From positions 1 through 13,804 of the IMG/VR virus record IMGVR_UViG_2711768056_000004: a stretch of 13,804 nucleotides of DNA. One strand, written 5' to 3'. The translations under genes were made by a program, and so were the position numbers. This DNA is from a virus. Taxonomy: Duplodnaviria > Heunggongvirae > Uroviricota > Caudoviricetes. Positions 4,174 through 9,126 of the stretch are shown here, piece after piece (positions within the stretch are counted from its first letter, which is position 1; every line of letters begins with the position of its first letter). The notes under the pieces were generated by a model, which was not told where the DNA came from, ran no database searches, and worked only from the letters and a program-made list of their open reading frames with translations.

Positions 4174-4198
4174 GGCCCAAAACATCGGGCCATTTTTT
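4174..4198. terminator. Bidirectional rho-independent terminator between the convergent gtr operon and tailspike gene
   Basis: Hairpin GGCCC (4174..4178), 8-nt loop, GGGCC (4187..4191), flanked by an A-run (4168..4173) and a T-run (4193..4198). Lies 11 nt after the gtrC stop and overlaps the tailspike stop codon. Confidence 0.7.
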
Positions 4199-6065
4199 AT
4201 GTGTAGTTAGCAATAAGTCTGCAAAACCATTGAGTGCCGCCGTTTATTGTTGAAAGCCTAAATACCTGCGTTCCTGAAAATGAAAGCGACGGTGTATTTG
4301 ATGCAAGTTTAACGTTAGACCCGAATGTTATTGTTTTTGATGCCGCCGAATAAACAGCTAATGTAACTTCTACATACCCAGTTAACGCATTTGACAATGC
4401 TGCTGGGGTTATTGTTACATCGCCAGTTACCGTTGCTGACACATACGCTGCATTAGAAAAGTCAGGCGCATACGATGCACCGGGGGTGTCAAATTTCGGA
4501 GACGCTACAAGCAGGGGAACACCTACGCTTCTCCTAAAAATTGTGCTATTGCTAAACATATCGTACTCTATCCCAACAAAGTTCTTAGCTGCCAGGATGT
4601 TTGTAAACGACTGGTCTATAGAGTAAATATGGTTTATCAACCTTGCTGTCCATGCTGGTGAGTTTGAGTTTCCACACTCAACAAATGAGCAGTTAACGCT
4701 ACCAACGGCAAACGGCATTAATGATGCAGTGTAAGAAGACAGTCCCGCAGCATTGAATGCATTCATATTCACGAATGTCTGACATTGAGAAAACGTATTA
4801 CCCGATGCTCCCGAATCGACAAAGAAACCAATACCGCCGTTAATATAACCATCTACCGAATCTAAATTAGCCTTCGTGTAGTCCCATTTTGACGGAGAGT
4901 CTGCAAAGCATTGGTTGAATGAGTTGTTTATCGAGTTTTGCACAACAAAGCAACACTTCATTCTTGAGTTTTGGTCAGCTACCGAGTCGTCATACATACC
5001 CCAGTTATGTACTTTATCGATACGATTGTTACCGCCACCCCTCACCCACGTCCCAAATCGGAAATAACGACCTTCACCCATGCTTACCTGATGGTCGCTG
5101 CCTTCAATAATATGGGCTTGACTTAGGGGGTTCGTAGGTTTTAATACACCTACCGCGTAAAACTTCATGAGATGAACACCCATGCCGCCAGCGATATGAA
5201 TGCCATGACCATCAACGTTGGCTACGTAAATACCATCTAACTTGTTGGCATAACCATCAGATATTTTAAATCCATTAACAGTCTTTGCGCGGGCGTCAAT
5301 TAAAAGATTGCTAATGTGCCCAGCGTATTGATTACCTGTTCCTTTATCGCATTTAACAGCATACCCAGAAGAATCCGCTATGAAGTCATCCGTGAGATAT
5401 ACCCCTCCAAATTCTGCATCTATGCTTACATCACCGTAAACATGTAATGTTGTGTTTATGGGGTATTTCTTTCCATTTAATCTGACAACTTTGCATACAG
5501 TATTTGGTTGTATCCAGTCTGGATGACCAGCAGCAGTGCTTGGGGAGTGCTCTAGCCCGGTTAAAGATGCGGCATAATCAATCGCATCCTGTAATGTTGT
5601 ATACATATCAGGATTGACGAATATAACATTTTTTAGCGTACCCCCAACCGTATCATCTGCGTAATCAACTGATTTATCGAATCCAACTAATCCAGCGCCA
5701 TTGCTCCCTTCAAGCTGTTGCCTTAACTGATCTGGGTCGTATTTTGCAATGTCAGGGAAGTAGAACTGCTGCGATCCATAGGCGTCGTAAACAGCCATGC
5801 TGTAATTCTGCACAGTAACGAACTTTGATATCTGCCCGTTGTAAACAGGATACCCACCCGCGTTAATGACTATCGGCTGAGCAGTTGGAATCAGATCTCC
5901 AGTTTCACTTTCAATATAAACAGGGATTTGGTTCGCTGGGATTGTAGGATCGGTATCTGGTAGCCCAAGATAGATTTTACCGTTGGCATTTGCTTTAAAT
6001 GAGCGTGCCAGCGTGAAAAGCTGCGAAGGCATCCCTACCACTAAGTTTGCGGTGATATCTGACAT
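4197..6065 (-). CDS. Tailspike protein (P22 gp9-like N-terminal head-binding domain fused to a divergent receptor-binding/O-antigen-depolymerase domain)
   Basis: 622 aa from the ATG at 6065, which has GGAG 7 nt upstream on the - strand. N-terminus [52 protein letters not shown]...VINAGG..VYNGQ...YDPDQ closely matches the remembered P22 tailspike head-binding domain. The remaining ~500 aa show no resemblance to the P22 catalytic domain. The ORF track's 638-aa version adds 16 codons that I consider non-coding. Confidence 0.88.
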
Positions 6066-6153
6066 TTCATTGCTCCAGACGAATGATATGATGCAACCAT
6101 GATGTGATTGCATACAGAAATGGTACTATTGAGTATTTATCCAGTAGGTTACG
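6066..6153. promoter_or_regulatory. Divergent tailspike / mnt intergenic control region with candidate operator
   Basis: 88-bp gap between divergent starts. Inverted repeat ATGCAA (6091..6096) - N11 - TTGCAT (6108..6113), plus direct repeat TGATnTGAT at 6083..6091 and 6101..6109. Positioned like the P22 immI Pant/Pmnt operator region, but operator identity is inferred. Confidence 0.4.
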
Positions 6154-6453
6154 ATGCCATTCCACCCAACTGGTGAGGCATCAAGGATGTACAGCAAATA
6201 CGACGAGGCGCAGTTTCACTTGAGACTTCCGCATGAACTCCACGAGAAAATTAAACAGCGTGCGAAGATGAATAACAGGTCGCTGAACTCAGAGATAATT
6301 GCAGCGATTGAAGAATCATTGAATAAACAAAGCTCTGCATCAGTTTGCATTGACGATGCAGATCGTATGGCAGAACAACAATCTGATATGGTTAAGAAAA
6401 TGGTTTTTGAAACGCTTAAGACCATGTATAGCAATAATAAAAAGGAAACATAG
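6154..6453 (+). CDS. mnt: Mnt-like ribbon-helix-helix (Arc/MetJ family) transcriptional repressor
   Basis: Translation FHLRLPHELHEKIKQRAKMNNRSLNSEIIAAIEESL...DADRMAEQQSDMVKKMVFETLKTMY aligns along its length with remembered P22 Mnt (FNFRMPMEVREKLKFRAEANGRSMNSELLQIVQDAL...DAERLADEQSELVKKMVFDTLKDLY). Start is ambiguous: ATG 6154 gives 99 aa, ATG 6187 gives 88 aa, closer to the 83-aa Mnt. Confidence 0.8.
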   Translation: MPFHPTGEASRMYSKYDEAQFHLRLPHELHEKIKQRAKMNNRSLNSEIIAAIEESLNKQSSASVCIDDADRMAEQQSDMVKKMVFETLKTMYSNNKKET

Positions 6454-6523
6454 AAATCTAGTTTCCGGCTAAAATGGCATTGCTTTCATGATATCCTGTG
6501 AAAAACTAAGGAGAGTTAACCAT

Positions 6524-7009
6524 ATGAAAAAATCACTGTTAATTATCCCGCTTCTGCTGGTTGGATGCGCAAAAGTAAGTGACTATCAAGCAAGTTGCGA
6601 ACAACGCTATCAAAAGCTTAGCGATATGGCTAATTGCCTTGATGCCAGAGTGAAGAACGACTCACGCATGGCATCAGCACCAACACCTAAGCTATATGTC
6701 CTTGCTGCAAAGATGCTCGGGCAAGGTGTCGATGAAGGCAAGATAAGTGACGCACAGGCAAGACTTGAGCTTCAGAATCTTTATGTTCAATTACAAAGCC
6801 AAGAACAAGCCCAACAAATAGCACAAAGCCAAGCATTCCAGCAGGCTTTATTGAATTATCAGGCTGTAAACACAATGCAAGCGATCGAGCAAAAAGCGCG
6901 CCAGCCTGTTATAACTCAACCTTACCCAACGCGTGTTGACACCTATACAAACTGCAATTCAGGATTTGGAAATACCGTCACATGCAACAGTAGCAGCAAC
7001 ATTAGATAA
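6524..7009 (+). CDS. Predicted lipoprotein with Q-rich coiled-coil-like segment and Cys/Asn/Ser-rich C-terminus; function unknown (moron; candidate superinfection-exclusion factor)
   Basis: 161 aa from ATG 6524, with AAGGAG at 6508..6513. The ORF track's upstream start at 6488 adds 12 residues before the signal peptide. MKKSLLIIPLLLVGC is a signal peptide with a lipobox (LVGC). Followed by a Q/A-rich stretch (LQNLYVQLQSQEQAQQIAQSQAFQQALLNYQ) and tail TYTNCNSGFGNTVTCNSSSNIR. Co-oriented 70 bp downstream of mnt. Confidence 0.6.
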   Translation: MKKSLLIIPLLLVGCAKVSDYQASCEQRYQKLSDMANCLDARVKNDSRMASAPTPKLYVLAAKMLGQGVDEGKISDAQARLELQNLYVQLQSQEQAQQIAQSQAFQQALLNYQAVNTMQAIEQKARQPVITQPYPTRVDTYTNCNSGFGNTVTCNSSSNIR

Positions 7010-7011
7010 AG

Positions 7012-9126
7012 CTATTCATATTCATTCATACCGCTTAACGAGGCGACAATACCAGCTCTCGACAAGCGATTGAATTCATCGCTACCAATAGCATCGCGTA
7101 TTGCTTTTACGGCGGCCTTATTTGCCATAAATCTGCGTTCCGCCGCCGCTAATGCTTCTTTGCTTCCGCCTGCTCTTACTGCTTTGGTGGCTTCCTGAAC
7201 AGCTTTCTCTATCGCATATCGACCACTACGTGTGGTGGCAATTTTAGATACAGCGCCTTTTAACCCAGCGCCAACTAAAGCACCCGCGGCAGCGCCTGCA
7301 ATACCCCCTCCAGCGCCACCAACAATGGCACCTGATGTTGAGTTGGCAATTGCATTTAACACTGTTGATGTGACGTTGGATAAACCAGCATCCAGATCGC
7401 GTAGTACATTGGCAGTTCTCCCTGTTCTTTCAATATACTGCTGAGGTTTCACTGCCGCTCTTGCAAGAGTGCCATATGCATCAGCAATTCTTCCAAGTTC
7501 TGAGGAATATCTGCTAATGGCTTTTACATTTTGTGGGGTAAGTATCCCTGCGATATGGTTAATTCCTGCTGCATCAGATTTGCCACCACGTACACCATGC
7601 GAGATAGCATCCTGCAACATTGATGATATAGCAGGAACACGCTCTGATTCTGGCAGCGCGCGGATCATAGAATGGAATCCAGCAGGACCATTAAGACCTT
7701 TAGCTGACGATGATTGAAGAGATTTTACTCCATTCGTAATCAGTGCATCTGTTGCCAAATCACGCCCAAAAACAGACTCTGCACTCTCTTGTGCGGATAG
7801 CCTCGCTTTAGACAGATCATTAGCTTTTTGCCAGTCATCAAAAAATCCGCCGTTTTCCGCCATTGTGCGCATATCATCAGTAATTGCCCGACGTATTTCC
7901 CCTGCTCTCCTTGCCGCATTTGCCTCTCCACTACGCTTATATTTTTGCTCCGCATCAGCAAATTTCGCTCTCCATGCTTTCATGCCATCAAATGTTACTC
8001 CACCTTGATTGTTTGCCTGAACAAACTGTTTCATTTCAGGAGTAAGCGGTATGCCAGCAGATCGCTCTGCCTGAATAACGGCATTACCATTTAGCATTCT
8101 TGCTTTTTGATTTGGCATTGTTGACCGCACGTCATCCCATGCCGCGCGCTCAGCATCCTTCATCTGATCAAGATTTTGAAGAATCCTTTGTTTTATAGCC
8201 GCACTTTTTTCTGATGCCGTTCCAGATGCGGCCCCAAATTCATCAAGGTTTCGACTTAACTTTGATGATATTTCGTTAAATGCTGCCTGATGGGCATCCT
8301 GAACAATCCCTGGTGTTGATGCCAATGCGCCTTCGGCTTGTGCAATTCCACGACTTCCAGATCGCATTCCTGGTGTTAATGCGTTTATATCAATTCCAGC
8401 AGACTCAGCCGCTTTTGCTACATCTTCGGACACATTAGCGGCCTGACTGGCAATTGACTGACGCCCAGCACCTGACTTTGCCATCCTGGAAACATCATTA
8501 GCAGAATTCAGTGCTGCACCACCAAGAGCCTGTGAAACCCTTGGCGCAATAACGCGCCCGACACCTGAAAGAACGCCTTGAGCACCAATATTGATACCAC
8601 CGTTAATGGCAGCATTTTGTGCAAAATCACCCTCCTGATTTGCAGCATCAGCAAGAGAACCGGCAATCATGTTTCCTGCGGAACCGATGTCTCCTGCGAG
8701 CTTTGCTGGCGCTCCAGCAGCTTTTGCTGCTGTGCCAATTGGCAGGAGATACCCACCAATTGTTTCACCGGCTTGCGCGTAAGGGTCTGTCGGTCGATCG
8801 ACTGGACGATAGACATCATCCAAAACCTTGGGGCCACCAAGCCCATGGCTGATTGCATTAATCAGACTTGCGCCACCCTGCAATACGTCAAATGGTATGT
8901 TTACCAGACCACGGCCAGCCTGTTCTGCAATTTGCCCTGCGCTTTGACCACCAGTGAGCCAGTCAGTGGCTTTTCCTACCAGAGATTGTTCTTCTGGCTG
9001 CGATTGGTTTTGAGTGGATTGATCACCAGAAGACAGCATCTGAGCAATGCGACGTGCTCCCTCAGTATCGCCGGCAGCATCAGCATTTCTTAACGCCGTC
9101 ATCAACTGTTCGCGACTATAGGCCAT
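7012..9126 (-). CDS. Ejection (DNA-transfer / E) protein, P22 gp16-like by position
   Basis: 704-aa ORF, last gene of the late block before the immI-like cassette, in the position of P22 gene 16. Low-complexity Gly/Ala-rich hydrophobic segment near the C-terminus ([27 protein letters not shown]). Start overlaps the upstream gene stop as TAATG. Assignment rests mainly on synteny and size. Confidence 0.65.

Follow-up and report, generated by a model that had tools for sequence, protein, structure and literature searches.

A predicted Mnt operator and a candidate tailspike-leader stem-loop in an mnt-only remnant of the P22 immunity-I region

Introduction

The immunity-I (immI) region of phage P22, composed of mnt, arc, sar and ant, lies between gene 16 and the tailspike gene (gene 9). 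Its Mnt repressor contacts bases through residues 2, 6, 8 and 10 and stimulates the promoter Pmnt. Versions of this region that retain mnt only were described in 2008 as 'ant morons' in ST64T, ST104 and Para1 (Villafane et al., 2008; PMC2629481). The same work, on the genome of phage epsilon34, reported that in P22 polymerases from the late promoter continue across the moron and transcribe the tailspike gene, and it raised the speculative possibility that Mnt and Arc influence tailspike expression (PMC2629481). The phage L genome paper posed the question of whether mnt without ant is a decaying remnant or has acquired a new function (PMC8022706). Prophage transcription at this junction is known from the P22-like prophage BTP1, which produces the antisense RNA STnc6030 (Owen et al., 2020; PMC7067206).

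Here we analyzed a window of 13,804 nucleotides, the whole stretch of viral DNA studied, in which an mnt-like gene diverges from a tailspike gene. A previous sequence-only reading had placed a candidate Mnt operator in the gap between the two genes, at an inverted repeat, and suggested that Mnt may repress tailspike expression in the lysogen. This reading is partly supported by our analysis. The locus is an ordinary example of a type already on record, the mnt-only remnant of P22 immunity-I; what is added here is the corrected position of the operator, the way in which operator and recognition strand of Mnt co-vary among mnt-only lineages, alongside the loss of Pant, and a proposed leader stem-loop.

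Results

Genome context and gene starts

The window covers the end of the late operon in a P22-like (Lederbergvirus) prophage, in reverse orientation. Homologues of P22 genes 10, 26, 14, 7, 20 and 16 occupy the minus strand from 13803 down to 7012, and the tailspike gene follows from 6065 down to 4197; according to the ORF map, the plus strand carries an integrase gene, gtrABC, the mnt-like gene and a 173-codon ORF at the sieA position. The ORF map and annotated relatives place the mnt-like gene in a moron flanked by the gene 16 homologue and the tailspike gene, against the direction of the late operon. A near-identical prophage is found at a tRNA-Arg in E. coli Ecol_545. Of 5426 complete E. 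coli genomes, 331 have matches to the segment 5900-6600; phages Sf101 and IME10 share the same gap with about 93% identity.

The tailspike gene (4197-6065, minus strand) encodes a head-binding N-terminus of the P22 gp9 type (Pfam Head_binding, E = 3e-56), which aligns with MTDITANVVV of gp9. Its ATG is preceded, at a distance of 7 nt, by the Shine-Dalgarno (SD) sequence GGAG (6073-6076, minus strand), and the SD segment CTGGAGCAA is kept in P22 and in all the relatives. The longer reading frame, with 16 additional codons up to 6113, contains in-frame stops in Escherichia sp. E1V33, showing that the extension is not conserved. The choice of 6065 over 6113 made in the sequence-only reading is thus upheld.

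The mnt-like gene (6187-6453, plus strand) encodes a protein of 88 residues with a ribbon-helix-helix (RHH) N-domain (Pfam PF03869 Arc, E = 4.9e-16, 58.7 bits) and a C-terminal Mnt tetramerization helix (PF11423 Repressor_Mnt, E = 6.7e-11). Together with the matches to the PDB entries 1MNT (E = 3.4e-18) and 1QEY (E = 2.6e-6), this confirms the earlier assignment and identifies the product as a true Mnt homologue. Its start codon is most likely the one at 6187 rather than the ATG at 6154: the sequence read from 6187, MYSKYDEAQFHLRLP, aligns with P22 Mnt, the RefSeq start is identical and AAGGA precedes it, and in ST64T and Buttiauxella translation from the ATG at 6154 would run into in-frame stops. 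Given this start, the gap between the two genes spans 6066-6186 and measures 121 bp, not the 88 bp initially proposed.

The earlier observation that ant is absent also proved right, and arc is missing too. The 121-bp gap holds only small ORFs that are not RHH-like and the tailspike gene follows directly, so that no complete mnt-arc-sar-ant arrangement is present. Compared with P22, the locus retains a homologous two-domain Mnt and its place between gene 16 and the tailspike gene, and lacks arc, sar, ant, the Arc operator and the ant terminator. The gap is a remnant of the P22 Pant/Pmnt/Omnt control region. In this respect the locus resembles the mnt-only morons of ST64T, ST104, Para1, L, SE1, Gally, Sf101 and IME10, in which mnt likewise diverges from the tailspike gene across a gap of about 120-145 bp, arc and ant are absent and the operator palindrome is kept. 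The Salmonella mnt-only phages have a P22-type tailspike leader and the operator AGACCAC-G-GTGGTCT, whereas the window has a leader of the Sf101/IME10 type, which includes the repeat discussed below, and a lipoprotein gene after mnt.

Two mosaic joints were noticed in the window, at about 5997-6045 and about 6108-6111. Past about 6045 the region coding for the tailspike head-binding domain is highly variable in loci whose gap and mnt hardly vary, and the TTGCAT beside the operator is the point at which the two halves of the gap, left and right, recombine.

The operator homologue

The gap was aligned with the annotated immI region of P22 and with phages whose mnt faces the tailspike gene (ST64T, L, SE1, Gally and VSe13). 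The P22 Omnt palindrome (14828-14844) falls opposite positions 6111-6127 of the window (CATACAGAAATGGTACT), where the operator homologue ATACAGAAATGGTAC occupies 6112-6126. ST64T, L and SE1 (AAGACCACgGTGGTCTT), like Gally, have a perfect palindrome at this point of the alignment. In every aligned case the operator is followed by one base and then by the -35 hexamer of Pmnt (TTGAGA in P22, TTGAGT in the window). A predicted Mnt-type operator directly upstream of the tailspike gene is present, as had been suggested, but the homologous site is not the inverted repeat at 6091-6113, with which it shares only 2 bp.

Across relatives, the operators form an odd-centered palindrome with a CCA-N3-TGG core, and nearly all lineages fit the pattern nnn-CCA-nnn-TGG-nnn, with outer and central triplets that vary along with the N-terminal strand of Mnt. 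The operator of P22 and Pluralibacter, GGT-CCA-CSG-TGG-ACC, occurs with the strand ARDDPHFNFR; Pluralibacter, which has this P22-type strand and retains arc, carries the P22 operator sequence itself. In ST64T, L, SE1 and Gally, AGA-CCA-CKG-TGG-TCT is found with GRDDPQFNLR, and in a K. oxytoca element GAA-CCA-CCG-TGG-TTC is found with SRDDPQFKLR. Buttiauxella, with the strand DEAQFHLR, has the perfect site GTA-CCA-AAA-TGG-TAC, and the majority form in E. coli, with the same strand, is ATA-CCG-AAA-TGG-TAC. EC556, FG31 and JEP4 show a perfect 13-bp palindrome, TACCG-AAA-CGGTA, while the site reads ATACCTAAACGGTAC in Serratia and ATATCAC-C-GTGATAT in Phlomobacter (the Buttiauxella, Serratia, Pluralibacter and Phlomobacter sites were taken from species-representative genomes). 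The family consensus is GTACCA-AAA-TGGTAC, and the site is kept in VSe13, JEP4, LR-50, EC556 and Buttiauxella, which share the Mnt N-terminus.

The operator of the window itself is the weakest copy that we saw. Its right half, TGG-TAC, is ideal and shares the TGG of the P22 core, whereas its left half, ATA-CAG, matches at three of six positions and has CAG in place of the core CCA; the change of C to A at 6116, which goes beyond the usual E. coli form, is common to a minority of loci. Allowing at most one mismatch, the motif has a single match in the window (expected 0.16) and a single match in the whole of the closely related Ecol_545 prophage. The recognition strand reads AQFHLR against PHFNFR in P22, and the complete N-terminal strand, YSKYDEAQFHLR, aligns opposite ARDDPHFNFR, so that the residues aligned with Arg2, His6 and Asn8 differ. 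Since these are base-contacting positions in P22 Mnt, a different operator sequence and a different specificity are expected; the outer and central bases of the site differ from those of P22 as well. The 15-17-bp pseudo-palindrome at 6112-6126 is, we infer, the most likely binding site of the Mnt-like repressor.

A Citrobacter sp. copy (about 2430-2515 of its record) carries a TAG as the fifth codon of mnt, and its right operator half is TAGTAC in place of TGGTAC; here the gene and its site seem to decay jointly.

We also considered whether a window-type operator could stand in front of an arc-ant operon, which would suggest a trans-immunity role. JEP4 and an E. coli phage-plasmid do have arc-ant-kilA across mnt, and the site is not at the promoter of that operon. 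In JEP4 and an E. coli 39.9-kb element, this operon of arc, a P22AR-type antirepressor gene and kilA reads toward mnt and the tailspike gene and is divergent from a C2-like repressor gene. VSe13 has only a 97-codon antirepressor fragment at the corresponding position, and JEP4 keeps a stub of a P22-type tailspike start before a different tailspike.

Promoters in the gap

On the plus strand, a Pmnt homologue was located at 6129-6155, with the -35 hexamer TTGAGT (6129-6134), an unusual 15-nt spacer and the -10 hexamer TACGAT (6150-6155), as compared with TTGAGA-17-TATCAT in P22. These hexamers and the 15-nt spacer, identical in LR-50, score 8.0 bits, which is not above the shuffle background, and the assignment consequently rests on homology; the TTGnnn and TAnnAT elements are retained in nearly all lineages. 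Buttiauxella and Serratia have a better promoter, with the operator inside its spacer.

On the opposite strand, the position of Pant is occupied by a degenerate remnant (6132-6160, minus strand) consisting of ATGGCA (6160..6155), 17 nt and AATACT (6137..6132). It matches the consensus at 8 of 12 positions, keeps A-11 and T-7 and would start transcription near 6125, inside the operator. With a simple position weight matrix (PWM) it scores 6.5 bits, in contrast to 16.3 bits for Pant of P22 (TTGACA-17-TATATT) and 14.4 and 15.0 bits for its equivalents in Pluralibacter and K. oxytoca, all of them at loci that keep arc and ant. The best tailspike-sense scores of the mnt-only loci range from 4.3 to 7.1 bits, against a mean best score of 7.4 ± 2.0 in shuffled sequences, and the homologous -10 hexamers of the mnt-only lineages read TATATC, TGTATC, TGCATC, TAAATA, CAAATC and CGAACC, a pattern that looks like decay rather than conservation. 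A consensus scan of 5800-7200 for minus-strand sigma-70 promoters matching at least 9 of 12 positions returned none.

The proposal that, with ant gone, the Pant equivalent would drive the tailspike gene directly is accordingly not borne out, and its premise, that Pant transcripts of P22 read through ant into gene 9, is shaky, given that the P22 record has a terminator right after ant. Because the tailspike-facing Pant has decayed, the tailspike gene is most likely transcribed by read-through. A corrected form of the same proposal would have Mnt, bound at 6112-6126, repress a weak residual Pant, so that low-level tailspike expression is off in the lysogen and some early synthesis occurs upon infection. 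The remnant stands at the homologous place with a 17-nt spacer, keeps the two most important -10 bases and has its predicted start inside the operator as in P22, and secondary promoters do serve the tailspike gene of BTP1 (PMC7067206). However, its score lies below the shuffled mean, and its hexamers differ in every mnt-only lineage, most of which have no T at -7. We consider this version rather improbable.

A promoter-like match on the plus strand, CTGACA-17-AATGAT (6059-6087, 8.4 bits), overlaps the tailspike start codon and is specific to the leader type of the window. Its predicted start would fall inside the inverted repeat, directed toward mnt, and the match is not above chance.

The inverted repeat at 6091-6113

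The repeat ATGCAA-N11-TTGCAT is present as originally reported (ATGCAA at 6091-6096 and TTGCAT at 6108-6113) and extends to ATGCAACCA / TGATTGCAT, with 9-nt arms complementary at 8 of 9 positions, a 5-nt spacer and one mismatch (6097 C against 6107 A). A repeat at least as good appeared in 559 of 2000 dinucleotide shuffles of the gap (28%), and 61 of the 229 121-bp tiles of the window (27%) equal or better it. By this standard the repeat is unremarkable, and any significance can come only from comparing it across relatives.

The left half of the gap (6066 to about 6110), where the repeat resides, is a mosaic module. VSe13, LR-50, EC556, FG31-1, JEP4, Buttiauxella and Citrobacter combine the same Mnt strand and right half with a left half homologous to the P22 gene 9 leader, which has no such repeat; it is absent from Serratia as well, again with the same recognition strand. 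The repeat is thus missing from loci where the Mnt strand is the same. Per site over 46 haplotypes picked via the Mnt protein, the whole gap is almost invariant and the repeat is no better kept than its flanks, which leaves this comparison no power to set the repeat apart. With respect to P22 its position is not that of Omnt; up to the 2 bp at the operator homologue, it aligns with the SD and start region of arc.

These results bear directly on the original model, in which Mnt bound at 6091-6113 would repress a tailspike-driving promoter of the gap in the lysogen. A real repeat does stand between two divergent genes, variants at its single mismatched position restore pairing, and a double change in E1V33 keeps the palindrome; such changes would preserve a DNA palindrome too. 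Nevertheless, besides its position and its absence from loci with the same Mnt strand, its arms lack the family core CCA-N3-TGG, the symmetry of the DNA is lost and the pairing of one RNA strand kept in each of the 22 cells that have a one-sided change, a tailspike-facing promoter was not found at any quality and the repeat itself is not above chance. Taken together, this makes the original model very improbable.

An operator for another DNA-binding protein of the prophage or the host is a further option, since a near-palindrome of 23 bp is of typical operator size and lies downstream of the weak plus-strand match at 6059-6087. Against it, a search of the closely related 45-kb prophage region of Ecol_545 for a second copy returned none, even with 3 mismatches allowed, the immC operators there are 434-like and unrelated to the repeat, and the substitutions break DNA symmetry. 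We find this option scarcely credible.

A stem-loop in the tailspike leader

We propose, with modest confidence, that the repeat (6091-6113, minus strand) is best read as an RNA stem-loop in the 5' leader of the tailspike mRNA. On the tailspike-sense strand it would form a stem of 9 bp, including one G.U pair, with the loop CAUCA, ending 14 nt before GGAG; this stem appears in both the minimum free energy (MFE) and the centroid fold of the minus strand. The energy of an 86-nt fold is ordinary (z = -0.35), and the thermodynamic z-scores of neither strand are significant. Support comes from the pattern of substitutions in relatives, which were retrieved with a pattern anchored outside the repeat. 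On the tailspike-sense strand 195 of 198 cells are paired, compared with 173 of 198 on the other strand. All the one-sided arm substitutions are transitions; the tailspike-sense strand then retains a G.U wobble where the opposite strand has a C.A mismatch. The standing mismatch of the repeat is likewise a U.G on the tailspike-sense strand, replaced by U-A or C-G in minority variants, and the double change of E1V33 converts G-C to U-A, a single compensatory event. The observed pairing was reached by 5 of 500 shuffles and the covariation by 4 of 500, although closely related sequences, with few independent events such as those used here, can reach such values in the absence of structure.

The stem does not resemble an intrinsic terminator, since it is AU-rich and followed by CAUAUCAUUCGUCU, and the scan of 5800-7200 gave no terminator-like site. 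The best Rfam matches, at 13-18 bits, lie far under the gathering score. Leader stem-loops such as that of ompA are known to stabilize bacterial and phage mRNAs. The stem described here resembles them in being short and upstream of an SD that it does not occlude, but would be internal to a read-through transcript unless the RNA is processed.

The P22-type tailspike leader, which is not homologous to that of the window, has a stem of its own, with 6 bp (CCGUAG-loop-CUGCGG, P22 16160-16176), ending 15 nt before the SD of gene 9. It is also present in ST64T, L, SE1, Gally, CUS-3 and VSe13, and the P22 record has no annotation of it. Pairing holds in 52 of 54 cells on the tailspike-sense strand as compared with 41 of 54, with G.U tolerated only on the tailspike-sense strand; a CUUCGG variant loses one pair in six sequences.

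The main competitor of the leader stem-loop is that the repeat has no function and was left behind when a segment of about 16 nt was duplicated in tandem and degenerated (ATGCAATCACATCATGG / TTGCA-TCATATCATTC, minus strand); the self-complementary TGCA core of the units would produce an inverted repeat automatically. In a hand alignment the units agree at about 12 of 17 positions, and TGATNTGAT occurs twice in the gap (6084-6092 and 6100-6108), 16 bp apart, with one further copy in the 13.8-kb window; the chance tests, the conservation relative to the flanks and the unexceptional fold energy all favor this view. Against it stand the strand-specific wobble pattern, the compensatory change and the analogous stem that the non-homologous P22-type leader places about equally far from its SD, and Tandem Repeats Finder (TRF) reports no tandem repeat. 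A functionless repeat seems to us a serious contender, if on the unlikely side.

The mnt leader and the downstream gene

A second inverted repeat, GATGCC-N18-GGCATC (6153-6182, plus strand), is located just before the mnt SD and is conserved in 10 lineages. Six pairs are maintained across them; the three one-sided changes are all wobbles in the mnt sense and one pair is broken. It is possibly a hairpin of the mnt leader. The repeat shares positions with the predicted Pmnt -10 as well as with the first part of the mnt leader, and lies partly upstream of the predicted transcription start (about 6162), so if it acts as a leader hairpin the real mnt promoter would be further upstream, which would fit the Buttiauxella and Serratia promoter with the operator in its spacer. 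Whichever mnt promoter is the real one, Mnt would act on its own promoter.

The gene downstream of mnt (6524-7009, plus strand; MKKSLLIIPLLLVGC...) encodes, as judged from its translation, a lipoprotein with a Gln-rich middle, which matches phrog_6067 (1e-109) from residue 13 and shows neither a Pfam match nor similarity to P22 SieA. It begins 70 nt behind mnt, and no terminator was found between the two genes in the scan of 5800-7200, for which reason we consider that the gene is probably co-transcribed with mnt as cargo of the moron. Some relatives carry the gene; Sf101 and IME10 do not.

Discussion

The account that we favor, and hold to be probable, is as follows. A P22-type immunity-I control region would have lost arc, sar and ant, leaving an mnt-only ant moron with a 121-bp gap. 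The Mnt-like repressor, bound at 6112-6126 and one base from its own -35, would autoregulate mnt and probably the lipoprotein gene too. With Pant decayed, the tailspike gene would most likely be expressed by late-operon read-through across the antisense-oriented moron, and not from a Mnt-gated promoter, as judged from the sequence. The inverted repeat would be an element of its own, confined to one variant of the tailspike-proximal half, and would most likely act as an RNA stem-loop 14 nt upstream of the SD; a duplication of about 16 nt around the TGCA core may be its origin. A role in mRNA stability or processing is our guess.

Several mnt-only lineages, from several enterobacterial genera, share the behavior on which this account depends, namely a palindrome at the Omnt position that tracks the Mnt strand while Pant decays. 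That the palindrome is kept, and changes with the strand, argues that the repressor-operator pair is still under selection, and bears on the question raised for phage L. Such a pair is most simply understood as an autoregulated cassette able to carry cargo, for example the lipoprotein gene. The predicted specificity class, which joins the strand AQFHLR to the site GTACCA-AAA-TGGTAC, is directly testable. Two start-codon calls are corrected and the predicted operator is moved by about 20 bp. The stem-loop proposed for the tailspike leader is a minor observation, new and unproven.

A bolder hypothesis would join these elements. In ant-less P22-like phages, the Mnt-operator pair might have been kept for the control of convergent transcription at the gene 16/tailspike junction instead of an antirepressor, giving rise in the lysogen to antisense RNA of the STnc6030 kind that here includes the lipoprotein gene, with the stem-loop 14-15 nt before the SD, in its two non-homologous versions, marking the processed, stable start of the tailspike mRNA and a weak, Mnt-sensitive Pant perhaps adding to it. 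BTP1 is comparable in that prophage transcription there also runs antisense to the late message at this junction, in the same orientation as mnt and the lipoprotein gene of the window. STnc6030 differs in being non-coding, in starting inside the tailspike gene and in having an immunity phenotype; moreover, BTP1 lacks mnt. We regard the combined hypothesis as a long shot.

One minor observation concerns CUS-3. This phage was described as apparently lacking arc (PMC2629481), and on its minus strand, at 1968-2105, there is an unannotated ORF of 46 codons (MKVKTLRMPEKLEKILEEKAKEECRSFSAEVIKRV...) that matches Pfam Arc above the cut-off (E = 3e-8). It is located in the 'boundary sequence bsq2', between ant and mnt.
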